Shown: piece after piece, positions 59,520 to 63,011 of the stretch
Layout of the letters: every line of letters starts with the position of its first letter
Numbering within the stretch: position 1 is the first letter of the stretch
From: Candidatus Sungiibacteriota bacterium
GTDB lineage: Bacteria; Patescibacteriota; Minisyncoccia; Sungbacterales; HO2-52-23
Assembly (NCBI GenBank): GCA_016432465.1
Contig: CP066690.1
Coordinates: 786,724-850,723, forward strand
DNA length: 64,000 bases
Direction: 5' to 3'
The notes under the pieces: generated by a model
What the model was told of the DNA's origin: nothing
Databases searched by the model: none
Seen by the model: only the letters and a program-made list of their open reading frames with translations
Made by a program: the position numbers and the translations under genes

Positions 59520-59597
59520 TTATGTCCAACGCGGTCCAACATTTAACGTTGGACATTTTTTATAATCCGGCAGACTAATTATTGTGGATAAATCCCC

Positions 59598-59727
59598 TTG
59601 ACTTTTTAAATAGGAGGATTATAATATAGGTGTGAGTGTCTTTTAGGAGGTGTTCCGCTTACAGCGGAGTATTCCTAAAACTCCAATTTGTCCGCGTAAA
59701 ACCCCCTTTCGGGGGTTTTACGTTTTG
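59598..59727 (+). ncRNA. Candidate small RNA: promoter TTGACT-16-TATAAT, ~95-nt transcribed region ending in intrinsic terminator GTAAAACCCCCTTTCGGGGGTTTTAC+T-run
   Basis: Promoter-to-terminator unit with no convincing ORF, 400 bp upstream of murB. Confidence 0.3.
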
Positions 59728-60123
59728 GATGGGTCTCATCCACACCAAGCAGATAAAATATGAAGCTCCACGGGCAAGCCTGTGGTATCCACGGTTTCAT
59801 GGTTAAGCCTGTGGTCTTCTGGTGCGTGGATAAAAGTCTAGGGGGGTCACAGAGGGTTTAACTCCAATACACTTGTCCTTCGTCCCCCACCCAACTTTGA
59901 CCGGAGATTTACTTACAAGGCGCCAGAAGGGTTTAACTCCAAAACTTTGTCCTTATGTGAGTGCCGGCTTCTGACGCCGTGAAAATAAAATGTCAAAGTT
60001 GGGTGGGGAATAAATGAGTGCCTGCTCCATAGCCCATCAAGAAAAAGGTGGGAGGATGAATGAGTGTCTCTAGTAAACCTTCTTGCTTAAACCCCTCATT
60101 ATTATATAACATAGATCTGTAGC

Positions 60124-61161
60124 ATGCCAGTAACTATAAAAGAAAATATCTCCCTCGCGCCCCACACTATATATAAAATAGGGGGGCCTGCGCGATATTT
60201 TGTGGAGACGAAAAATTCAGATGAGCTTAAACAGGCGCTTGATTTTGTAGCAACAAAAAAAGTTCCTATTTTTGTTTTGGGAGCAGGCTCAAATATATTA
60301 GTGAGCGATAAGGGGTTTGATGGTTTGGTAATTCGTATGGCCGGCGGGGAAGTTAAGGTTGAGGGCGAGAGATTGACTGCGGATGCCGGAGTTATGATGG
60401 CGCAAGCGGTATTGAAATCAGCGCAGGCTGCTTTAAGCGGTTTTGAATGGGCCATCGGAGTTCCCGGAACTATTGGCGGATCGGTGCGGGGCAATGCCGG
60501 GTGTTTCGGCGCAGAGATGAAAGATGTCGTTGAATCGGTGAAAATTCTTGACTTGGGGAAGTCGGACTTCCCAAGGAAGTCCGACTTCCTGATATTGAAA
60601 AATACACAGTGTGAGTTCTCGTATCGCGATTCAATTTTCAAAAAACATCCGGAGTGGATTATTCTTTCCGCGACCCTAAAACTTCAAAAAGGAGATCCTG
60701 CTAAAATTCAGGAGAAAATAAAACGCATTACTGCCGAGCGCGCACAAAAACAGGACATTGGCACCAAATCCTGCGGGTGTATTTTTAAAAATATTTCTTG
60801 GGCCCCGTTAGAGGTAAGCCGCCCCTTGGCGGCTGCCGCCGTGCCGTCCGGGCAGGGCGGACCTCTAACGGGGTGGGCAAGAAAAGATATAAATAAGGAA
60901 AAGATTCTTTCACAATTTCCCGAGCTTGAACAATTTAAGGATCAACCCAATGTCCCGGCCTCGTTTCTTATTGATAGGGCAGGACTTAAAGGAAAAAGTG
61001 TTGGACATGTTTTTATCTCCCCAAAACACGCCAATTATTTTGTAAATGAGGGCGGTGCAACGGCTGAAGGGGTTGTCACGCTTATTGGGATTGCCAAAGA
61101 CACCGTGCGACATAAGTATGAATTGTCGCTTGAGGAAGAAATACAGTATGTGGGATTTTAA
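60124..61161 (+). CDS. murB: UDP-N-acetylenolpyruvoylglucosamine reductase, with two in-frame palindromic insertions
   Basis: N-terminal FAD-binding domain (IYKIGGPARYFVE...VPIFVLGAGSNILV), and a C-terminal domain ending EEEIQYVGF. About 45 extra residues relative to typical MurB, located at the palindromes. Confidence 0.8.
   Translation: MPVTIKENISLAPHTIYKIGGPARYFVETKNSDELKQALDFVATKKVPIFVLGAGSNILVSDKGFDGLVIRMAGGEVKVEGERLTADAGVMMAQAVLKSAQAALSGFEWAIGVPGTIGGSVRGNAGCFGAEMKDVVESVKILDLGKSDFPRKSDFLILKNTQCEFSYRDSIFKKHPEWIILSATLKLQKGDPAKIQEKIKRITAERAQKQDIGTKSCGCIFKNISWAPLEVSRPLAAAAVPSGQGGPLTGWARKDINKEKILSQFPELEQFKDQPNVPASFLIDRAGLKGKSVGHVFISPKHANYFVNEGGATAEGVVTLIGIAKDTVRHKYELSLEEEIQYVGF
60555..60589. 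repeat. GGGAAGTCGGACTTCCC palindrome (1.9 copies) in-frame inside murB (encodes GKSDFPRKSDF)
   Basis: Same palindrome family as 7992, 13231 and 18219, which are otherwise intergenic. Confidence 0.8.
60804..60873. repeat. GC-rich palindromic insertion inside murB (CCCCGTTAGAGGT ... ACCTCTAACGGGG arms)
   Basis: 13-bp inverted arms around a GC-rich core, translated in-frame as an Ala/Gly/Pro-rich loop. Confidence 0.6.
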
Positions 61162-61223
61162 GGGCTTGGCCTAAATTTTCAATCCCGACTGGTCGGGAGA
61201 AGAAAATTTAGCTGCCAAACCTT

Positions 61224-61375
61224 AACCCCGCACTAATTTTGCCGCGTAAATCTGGGCAGTGCACCATTGAAACCTGAAATGGAATACATTTGCAGCCCGC
61301 GCGTGCCGAATAGGCACACACCGTTATGGGTGAGGCGGGCTGCCCCGTTTCATGTTGCAAAATTAGTGCGGGGTT
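61224..61375. repeat. 19-bp inverted repeat pair (AACCCCGCACTAATTTTGC ... GCAAAATTAGTGCGGGGTT) enclosing ~115 bp
   Basis: Perfect inverted repeats immediately after the murB stop, at the edge of the high-GC insert. Confidence 0.7.
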
Positions 61376-61581
61376 GATGACTATTGCAAGATTTAAATGG
61401 ATATGGTATTATGAAATTATAAAAAAGCTAAGCTCTTTTGATTAAGTTTGCGAGTTCGCCATAGCGTTTGGCGTGTTTGGAAAGCACTTCAAACGCTGTG
61501 GCGAATGGGAGGGTTAAATCGGTGCTCGCATGGTGCGACTGCCGACAAAACCGCGCTACGGCTCGTGCAAGGAGGCCCATC

Positions 61582-62190
61582 ATGGGCGACCATACCAATC
61601 TCATCATTACTGCAGTGAACACGCTGACTGCGAACGCGGACCTGGGGTCATTAGATCCCGAACGGTTCCAGGTCCAGGACCGGATCATTCGCGATGGGCA
61701 GCGCGCCGGTCGCGAGTTCCGGAAGTTTCTCGAGCTCGGCGCCGAAATCCAAATTGTGGTGCCTGAGCTCCATGTCATCGACTGTCGTATCGCCTCGATG
61801 CCACGAGAGTGGCGAGAGACTGGGTGGAAAGTCGAGTGGCACCGCAACCTCGGGCATCAGGTCTTCACGCCTGATGCCATCCGTCTGCACCTCGCCGAGG
61901 AGCAGAAGGATGGCAGGATCGTGCGCGGCGACAAGCTGCGCAAGATCATCGAGACCGAGCCGGTCCTCACGGACAACTGGCTTGACTTTCTCCTCGAGCA
62001 TCCGGAGTTCATACCGGAGTCGTGGAAGGGGAAGGCCATCTTCTTCTGGGGGACTGGCTACCGCCACCCCGACGGCGGCCTCTACGTCCGTTTCCTCTCT
62101 TTTAGTGTTGGGCTGTGGTACTGGCGCTGCTACTGGCTCGGCATCGACTGGTCTCAGTCGTACCCGGCTGCGGTGCTCGCAAGCTCCTGA
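61582..62190 (+). CDS. Hypothetical protein within high-GC insert (start at MGDHTNL assumed)
   Basis: Longest ORF in a ~0.9-kb GC-rich segment that also yields overlapping ORFs in all frames. Coding status uncertain. Confidence 0.3.
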   Translation: MGDHTNLIITAVNTLTANADLGSLDPERFQVQDRIIRDGQRAGREFRKFLELGAEIQIVVPELHVIDCRIASMPREWRETGWKVEWHRNLGHQVFTPDAIRLHLAEEQKDGRIVRGDKLRKIIETEPVLTDNWLDFLLEHPEFIPESWKGKAIFFWGTGYRHPDGGLYVRFLSFSVGLWYWRCYWLGIDWSQSYPAAVLASS

Positions 62191-62351
62191 TCGCTTGGTC
62201 GCTGGGTCACTTGTGCGCAAGGCACTTTGACCCTCTGACCCTTACCTGCCATCAGGCAGGCAAAGAGTCGGTTCACCCCTGGTGGACCGACTCTTAAATT
62301 AACTATGATTGAAGTCGAACTTCAATCATTAAAACTTCAATCATTAACTGC

Positions 62352-62449
62352 CACGGCGGAGGAAGTGGCGACTCTTGTTGAAACTGCAAAAGATACTGTG
62401 CGGAGAAAGTACGGCTTGCTACTTGAGGAGGAGATACAGTATGTTGGGT
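62352..62449 (+). pseudogene. Orphan divergent duplicate of the murB 3' end (encodes ...EEVATLVETAKDTVRRKYGLLLEEEIQYVGFV*)
   Basis: About 75% nt identity to 61065-61161 (EGVVTLIGIAKDTVRHKYELSLEEEIQYVGF*), with no upstream murB body. Confidence 0.7.
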
Positions 62450-62513
62450 TCGTTTGATACCCCTAAAAAGCTATGCTAAACTGTTTTTGTGGTTCTTTTT
62501 GGGGGCGTAAATA

Positions 62514-63011
62514 ATGCGGAAACTAGGCAAGTTCTTTCGTGCTGGTATTATTTTAGTGGCTATTTGGGTTTTTGGATTCTATGCGGGGTATCAGTACAGC
62601 TGGCGAGAGAGTGCTTGGCTCAAGGCAGGAGATTTTTATATGGCAGATTTTGATTTACACGGTTGGACAATAGCCGAGGTTAATACCGCAGGACGTCTGA
62701 GAGCTATCTTATGGGAAGAGATGCGGAAATTGGAAGAGGGCAAAAAACTGCCATATGCGAAGTGGGAAGTCAAACTCGGAACTCACAAGAAGACAAAGAG
62801 GCCGGCACTTCTTGTTATTAAACATCGTACTCTTTATTGGTCACCTGTCGTTATATATTCAGTAAATATGAAAGATATGGATTTGGTGAATGGCCCGAGG
62901 TTGCGTCCCATAATGGAGTCTGTGAAGAGTAGTAACCCAGAAGTTGTATACAAAGAATTTATAAGATCGGATGTCGTACCGGTAGTTTATCGACGACTTT
63001 ATCAAGATTGA
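62514..63011 (+). CDS. Hypothetical membrane-anchored protein (N-terminal TM)
   Basis: TM helix GIILVAIWVFGFYAGY; 165 aa. Confidence 0.35.
   Translation: MRKLGKFFRAGIILVAIWVFGFYAGYQYSWRESAWLKAGDFYMADFDLHGWTIAEVNTAGRLRAILWEEMRKLEEGKKLPYAKWEVKLGTHKKTKRPALLVIKHRTLYWSPVVIYSVNMKDMDLVNGPRLRPIMESVKSSNPEVVYKEFIRSDVVPVVYRRLYQD

Follow-up and report, generated by a model that had tools for sequence, protein, structure and literature searches.

We studied a locus of Candidatus Sungiibacteriota bacterium in which the 3' end of murB, the gene of UDP-N-acetylmuramate dehydrogenase, is present twice, on the two sides of an insert that carries a solitary gene of the type targeted by diversity-generating retroelements (DGRs). 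The window, i.e., the whole stretch of DNA that was analysed, comprises 64,000 nt of contig CP066690.1 (assembly GCA_016432465.1, positions 786,724 to 850,723 of the forward strand). The site is probably a recombination scar that joins DNA of two diverged, related bacteria by one homologous crossover and one illegitimate join. The features on which this reading depends are the gene with its two tails and the open reading frame (ORF) between them:

60124-61161, plus strand: murB, 345 aa, intact, with Pfam FAD_binding_4 and MurB_C domains and matches to the NCBIfam murB equivalogs.
61057-61158, plus strand: tail copy c1, formed by the 34 final codons of the functional murB (ATAEGVVTLIGIAKDTVRHKYELSLEEEIQYVGF); its stop codon is at 61159-61161.
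61582-62190, plus strand: 202-aa ORF, a solitary DGR variable (target) protein gene; GC 0.61, GC at third codon positions (GC3) 0.78.
62059-62182, plus strand: variable region (VR) of the 202-aa ORF, collinear with the template repeat (TR) of the related locus L099.
62350-62457, plus strand: tail copy c2, an orphan 3' end of murB (ATAEEVATLVETAKDTVRRKYGLLLEEEIQYVGF, then V and a stop), with no murB body upstream.

The 34 codons of c1 were repeated at 62350-62451 with 71 of 102 nt and 26 of 34 aa identical, and by tblastn the murB tail matched the DNA downstream with E=1.5e-14. The duplication that a preliminary description had proposed from the sequence alone is real, at 71% nucleotide identity instead of ~75% and with coordinates that needed correction by a few bases. 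On its own, c2 matched positions 67-99 of the 99 positions of Pfam MurB_C (E=3.9e-5, under Pfam's gathering score); it lies within a 50-aa ORF (62305-62457) and has one additional codon ahead of the stop as compared with c1. No murB-like body was found 5' of c2 at the locus, and the orphan is, as had been stated, not the end of a second intact murB. The longest identical run between both tails was 11 nt (ATACAGTATGT, 61141-61151 and 62434-62444), within the 71% overall identity; a core of the attachment-site (att) type was not evident, and the run is compatible with a short core without indicating one.

The differences between c1 and c2 were distributed as 3/7/21 over codon positions 1/2/3 (chi-square p=1.8e-4), i.e., third positions were saturated and positions 1 and 2 were well conserved. 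Neutral decay in place predicts ~43% differences at positions 1 and 2 versus the 15% seen (p=3.7e-7), and this codon-position pattern rules out c2 as a copy of c1 that decayed in place after a target-site duplication. The orphan contained no stop codon or frameshift and its frame is still open. Because the differences concentrate at third codon positions and the c2 frame is open, both tails were, until recently, evolving as parts of functional murB genes, each in a lineage of its own. From these different origins it follows that one tail arrived by horizontal transfer and the other was displaced, and in this the earlier suggestion of foreign DNA with a displaced gene tail holds. The copy c2 is best explained as a non-functional orphan left behind, murB itself remaining intact.

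It is possible that c1 is the replacement and c2 the original tail, as was first suggested. Among the MurB tails of 119 relatives, c2 was the closer of the two in 112 cases and c1 in 5, and the murB tail of the related locus L136 was identical to c2 at 73 of 102 nt and to c1 at 64 of 102 nt. Three tests for the native tail were uninformative or weakly suggestive, because all relatives at hand are saturated at synonymous sites: the nucleotide and codon-position identity of c1 and c2 to five relatives, rank correlations over the 119 homologs, and informative sites with protein P0027 set against P0028-30.

The 202-aa ORF was the only substantial ORF in the insert, and an NCBI protein of Candidatus Sungiibacteriota is 100% identical to it. 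It belongs to a large family of ~200-aa proteins that comprises 4148 cluster representatives (E<=1e-3); among GTDB species representatives the family was found at 360 loci, mostly titled Patescibacteria, and 2.9 million viral contigs yielded only 4. A fixed arrangement right after the target gene, with the TR, then Avd on the opposite strand and then the reverse transcriptase (RT) gene, was seen in 49 of the 121 family loci examined (the TR plus at least one of Avd and RT). Of all relatives P0002 was the closest (76% aa identity; 80% nt identity over 864 nt); it resides in the intact DGR of L099, where all 14 mismatches between VR and TR fell at template adenines; in L011 a second VR/TR pair had 9 of 12 mismatches at adenines (counted by eye). 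When the VR of the window was compared with the heterologous TR of L099, 19 of 32 adenine sites were mismatched versus 13 of 92 others (odds ratio 8.9, Fisher p=1.9e-6). Differences from L001 were spread as 10/14/9 over codon positions in the last 45 codons (158-202, ~62053-62187, with the VR inside) versus 24/15/66 in the remainder of the ORF, the latter being the pattern of purifying selection. Because of the intact DGR relatives and the adenine-biased mismatches, the ORF is identified as a DGR variable-protein gene with a VR shaped by adenine mutagenesis. DGRs of the Candidate Phyla Radiation (CPR) were reportedly first surveyed by Paul et al. in 2017.

Within the 64-kb window we found neither RT nor Avd (tblastn, L011 queries) nor TR (blastn with the VR), and the target gene is best explained as separated from the machinery of mutagenesis, unless some DGR in another part of the genome serves it in trans. 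Contigs from seven other sequencing runs that cover all or part of the VR were identical to the window there. The ORF had no match in Pfam, NCBIfam or PHROGs, nor in a sequence profile search of PDB, and the insert had none in phage and plasmid DNA, a comparison that the preliminary description had suggested. With regard to the C-type-lectin fold, a confident structure model was obtained, with a predicted local distance difference test score (pLDDT) of 84.8, and its Foldseek matches to lectins were weak only. CPR DGR targets have been described as small proteins without recognisable domains (PMC8144416). Some members of the family (P0148-P0151) were longer, with 480-800 aa and three or four tandem copies of a conserved 135-aa core.

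The ORF lies in a cassette with the following additional parts, which ends in a junction with the orphan tail:

61384-61412, plus strand: promoter-like site for the cassette (TTGCAA-17-TATTAT with TG), equally placed in the relatives L099 and L001.
61455-61505, plus strand: conserved hairpin in the 5' untranslated region (UTR) of the DGR target-gene family (GCCAYAGC...GCTRTGGC).
62263-62295, plus strand: hairpin of the terminator type that closes the conserved 3' UTR, kept in L099 and L001.
62296-62315, plus strand: remnant of the promoter-like sequence found before the TR in L099; the last stretch homologous to intact DGRs.
62316-62349, no strand assigned: junction filler with two tandem 15-nt units (AACTTCAATCATTAA, 62318-62347) that repeat the end of the cassette before them in inverted orientation.

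The cassette was collinear with L099 and L001 from the promoter-like site at 61384-61412 through the 5' hairpin, the ORF, the 3' UTR and the terminator, up to ~62315. The next 34 nt correspond to two tandem inverted copies of the last 11-15 nt of the cassette, and the orphan murB tail starts right after them. The inverted copies and the cassette end together form a palindrome at 62305-62329; the palindromic motif noticed earlier is therefore present, although not at 62312-62350 where it had been placed. One population contig showed a single-nucleotide polymorphism at filler position 62323. The insert is a DGR target-gene module severed just before the TR, which replaces the earlier proposal of a decayed or non-autonomous integrative element, and the filler was presumably produced by repair at an illegitimate junction. 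Other solitary copies, such as those in L001 and L100, kept different lengths of DGR sequence after the terminator.

Between the target-gene terminator and the TR, DGRs of this clade presented a promoter-like TAGAAT with a conserved GGAYAGTAGGTGA motif after it, possibly the start of the DGR RNA. These sites were located at ~1000-1040 in L099, ~5715-5760 in L001, ~5735-5755 in L011 and ~745-760 in L100, and solitary copies ended at different points around them. The 5'-UTR hairpin, ~55 nt long and ~95-125 nt 5' of the target-gene start codon, was found in DGR-linked and solitary copies alike; 19 of its 22 predicted pairs showed compensatory changes in 24 loci, which had been pre-selected for having such a hairpin. 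A search of the region against Rfam with permissive thresholds gave only chance-level miRNA and snoRNA matches, none of them on the 5' hairpin or on the 152-nt element described below.

As to base composition, the GC content was 0.59-0.62 over ~61500-62300 versus ~0.46 for the window, which confirms the sharp contrast reported before. The excess in the ORF was due mainly to third positions, with a GC3 of 0.78 versus 0.44 in murB. In 80 family loci the target gene was on average 11.7 GC points richer than its flanks, with an excess of >5 points in 71 of them; in 23 intact DGRs the target stood 10.9 points above the flanks and the RT of the same element 4.0 points below. High GC is a trait of the family and no mark of recent foreign origin. 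The argument from composition to foreignness made in the preliminary description fails, because the family is GC-rich even inside resident DGRs with a slightly AT-rich RT.

The arrangement was also found outside the assembled genome. Eight independently assembled contigs from different sequencing runs were 99.9-100% identical to the window over whatever part each covers, and two of them, L013 (60326-62933) and L137 (59014-64000), span all junctions at 100% identity. The window comes from a metagenome-assembled genome and several short population contigs stop near 62304-62333, as a chimera of assembly might produce, but L013 and L137 come from other sequencing runs and cross every junction, which leaves that explanation a practically negligible chance.

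A spacer of 222 nt (61162-61383), unique to this genome among the loci fetched, separates murB from the cassette and contains the following element:

61222-61377, no strand assigned: structured inverted-repeat element with 36-nt arms (61224-61259 and 61340-61375), single copy.

The perfect 19-bp inverted-repeat pair reported earlier is present at 61224-61242 and 61357-61375, with 0.04 such matches expected by chance. It is the base of the 36-nt arms that close a 152-nt structure with a perfect stem of 21 bp and a minimum free energy of -84.4 kcal/mol (z = -6.7). No other copy was found in the window or in 140 other loci. A miniature inverted-repeat transposable element was considered and rejected, the element being single copy with no flanking duplication visible. 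The repeats and the palindrome had been read together as a single footprint of integration; they were separated by the present analysis into the 152-nt element and the junction filler.

In the probable history of the site, one lineage would have carried a DGR just downstream of murB and another a murB directly followed by a 165-aa gene, for which two features were recognized:

62514-63011, plus strand: 165-aa hypothetical gene, directly after murB in L136.
62454-62482, plus strand: promoter-like site for the 165-aa gene (TTGATA-17-TAAACT), overlapping the orphan c2 stop codon.

In L136 a homolog of this gene (60% aa identity) lies 69 nt after murB, which is the arrangement of the window from the orphan tail onward. 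One homologous crossover, in murB or in the downstream genes, would have brought both lineages together, and an illegitimate join would have linked the DGR at ~62315, via the 34-nt fold-back filler, to the murB of the other lineage at codon 312. Two versions of these events fit equally well. In version A, the 3' part of murB, the spacer and the target cassette would be incoming DNA anchored in murB, and the orphan would be the native tail. In version B, the orphan tail and the 165-aa gene would be incoming DNA anchored downstream, and the TR, Avd and RT of a resident DGR would have been deleted, i.e., a partial cure. The recombination mechanism itself we infer from the arrangement of these parts. 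[quoted passage not shown] As a separate observation, the extreme 3' end of the orphan may be retained for the expression of the 165-aa gene, given its overlap with the predicted promoter-like site.

Several points weigh against this history. The donor arrangement (murB, spacer element, full DGR) was present in none of the fetched loci, and no family locus had an adjacent murB. The tails are ~29% diverged, and a RecA-type crossover between such partners is very inefficient and should be very rare. Neither segment-wise identity nor informative-site analysis of murB/MurB revealed a mosaic breakpoint. The origin of the filler as a repair product is interpreted, not demonstrated, and the 222-nt spacer with its structured element finds no explanation in the recombination model. 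The ~70-110-nt repeats around other solitary cassettes (see below) could also mean a dedicated insertion mechanism.

Such cassettes were found repeatedly. Among the 121 family loci, 33 were clearly solitary, i.e., had no RT, Avd or TR and >2.5 kb of downstream sequence, among them L063; RT, Avd and TR were likewise lacking in L107, L128 and the window, whose downstream flanks are shorter. In four cases the cassette was surrounded by direct repeats of local host DNA:

L063, 4285-4396 and 5291-5402: flanking repeat of 112 nt, 97% identity, comprising the end of a pilin-like gene and its terminator.
L107, 477-555 and 1318-1396: flanking repeat of 79 nt, 92% identity.
L128, 310-382 and 1267-1327: flanking repeat of 73 nt, 77% identity.
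Window, 61057-61158 and 62350-62451: flanking repeat of 102 nt, 71% identity, the murB tail.

In L063, L107 and L128 the left repeat stops 0-14 nt ahead of the -35 box of the cassette promoter. At the right junction of L063, the DGR sequence that follows the TR promoter and the tail of the pilin gene share a microhomology of 12-15 nt. Tail duplications were absent after IleRS in L001, Obg in L005 and the upstream gene in L011. That the end of IleRS in L001 had been replaced by cassette sequence was ruled out, the IleRS C-terminus being full length by comparison with L100. These parallel cases fit a picture in which DGR loci were truncated and recombined sporadically and more than once. At least four independent genomes with host repeats of 70-112 nt, at least two of them (the window and L063) at a gene 3' end, also suggest, as a tentative and rather doubtful idea, that target-gene cassettes consisting of promoter, 5' hairpin, gene and terminator are a recurrently relocated module in Patescibacteria.

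A related, unlikely explanation is that the cassette itself is mobile, or is copied by a replicative template switch, with a target duplication of ~70-110 nt, and that allelic recombination with a diverged murB subsequently exchanged one of two tails that were identical at first. The four or five independent cassettes with 66-112-nt direct repeats of local DNA, the graded identities of these repeats (97, 92, 77, 76 and 71%) and the close approach of the left repeat to the promoter in three loci are what such a mechanism would leave. It requires two events for the window, however, and 29 of the 33 clearly solitary cassettes had no flanking repeat; the right ends of cassettes lie at varied DGR points, a better fit to sporadic truncation than to a defined element end. 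To our knowledge no prokaryotic element makes target duplications of ~70-110 nt, which counts further against it. A site-specific integrative element that entered the 3' end of murB via a murB-tail-like att, with its integrase lost and both tails representing attL and attR, would account for direct repeats around a foreign-looking insert at a gene 3' end with the reading frame preserved, and the 11-nt identical run could act as the crossover core. Yet no integrase was found in the insert or between 47.6 and 64 kb, an absence already noted in the preliminary description, and the content of the insert is that of a truncated DGR with an illegitimate-looking filler junction. An untranslated murB-like attP arm should not keep a third-position-only divergence, the other solitary cassettes are flanked by unrelated host sequences with no common att site, and the family is almost absent from viral contigs. 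For these reasons we regard such an element as distinctly improbable.

The orphan might also be the remnant of a second, tandem murB paralog whose 5' body was deleted when the cassette arrived, or decayed; this would explain the purifying selection that the orphan experienced until recently. Such a paralog has little in its favour otherwise and is very improbable: a single murB was present at the locus in the four relatives that extend past this gene (L095, L096, L098 and L136), the genomes of the group are small, and the orphan adjoins the 165-aa gene just as the single murB does in L136. A join between two lineages, as described above, remains the reading that we prefer.

In relatives with a MurB 59-75% identical to that of the window, the gene order was a 153-aa gene, M24 peptidase, murB, a small variable ORF, purD and a hibernation factor. 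L095 and L096 represent the empty-site type, with murB, the small ORF and purD, and L098 ends after the small ORF; the contig of L097 stops 35 nt past the murB stop and is uninformative on the downstream order. A Pfam scan of all large ORFs between 47.6 and 64 kb revealed no integrase or transposase; the neighbours in this interval were polysaccharide (sugar) and cell-wall genes. The M24 peptidase gene, which in all relatives lies between the 153-aa gene and murB, was not found anywhere in the window. The two intergenic blocks on either side of it in the relatives were still present within the region 59520-60123, at 59622-59728 and ~59852-60066. The second block contained a 26-nt inverted repeat (59876-59901 and 59992-60017) that matched the relatives in either orientation, and may represent a conserved structured element 5' of murB.

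The murB gene itself carried two in-frame palindromic insertions, at 60556-60590 and 60803-60873 (compare 1789-1820 in L097). One consists of GGAAGTCGGACTTCC twice and adds ~6 aa; the other is an inverted repeat with 31-nt arms encoding 25 extra aa. Both were common to P0027 and lacking in P0028-30 and P0100, although the MurB of the window was otherwise closer to P0028-30. They recall in-frame palindromic elements such as those of Rickettsia, and a core related to them, GAAGTCGAACTTC, was present at the junction filler, at 62311-62323.

If the site is read as a join of two lineages, it is a clear and datable case of an essential housekeeping gene with a swapped 3' end and the old end displaced, a pattern previously known mainly from polymorphic toxin loci, and it implies DNA exchange between Patescibacteria lineages with ~30% divergence at synonymous sites. 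Composition was a poor guide to foreignness here, and a sharply GC-rich CPR gene can be a DGR target gene. The parallel cases raise the question of how DGR targets separate from the retroelement and whether stranded targets are still diversified in trans. Should the cassettes be a relocated module, this would represent either an undescribed spread of DGR parts without RT or the scar of a transformation-driven partial curing of DGRs, and the GC3 excess of the target over its own RT, together with the 5'-UTR hairpin, would point to unrecognised biology of such genes.

Both an orphan target gene of a DGR and a scar of 3'-end displacement are features of known kinds. The ORF of the window resembles the Patescibacteria/CPR DGR targets (clade 2 of Roux et al. 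2021, PMC8144416) in that it encodes a small protein with a C-terminal VR, no Pfam domain and no transmembrane segment, and its relatives show adenine-specific differences between VR and TR. In these relatives the order is target gene, TR, minus-strand Avd and RT, whereas the copy in the window has no TR, Avd or RT in 64 kb, is cut in the promoter-like sequence before the TR and is embedded between two murB tails. With remote or orphan DGR targets, which are acted on in trans, it shares the presence of a VR and the absence of an RT next to the gene; the 3' end of its VR and the downstream UTR are conserved with an active relative. Integrative elements that restore a gene 3' end likewise leave direct 3'-end repeats (attL and attR) around the insert and keep the reading frame, but here there is no integrase, the identical core is at most 11 nt, the cargo is a truncated DGR and filler DNA occupies the junction. 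The displacement of effector C-termini in Rhs, contact-dependent inhibition (CDI) and T6SS loci is similar in that a new 3' end and its cargo come in and the old 3' end is orphaned downstream in the same orientation, with one homologous side, one illegitimate junction and no dedicated recombinase. In contrast to those systems, the product of murB is not a polymorphic toxin but a housekeeping enzyme that is essential, its two tails encode the same function, so that the protein gains nothing, a DGR target gene forms the cargo, and there is a single displacement instead of an array.

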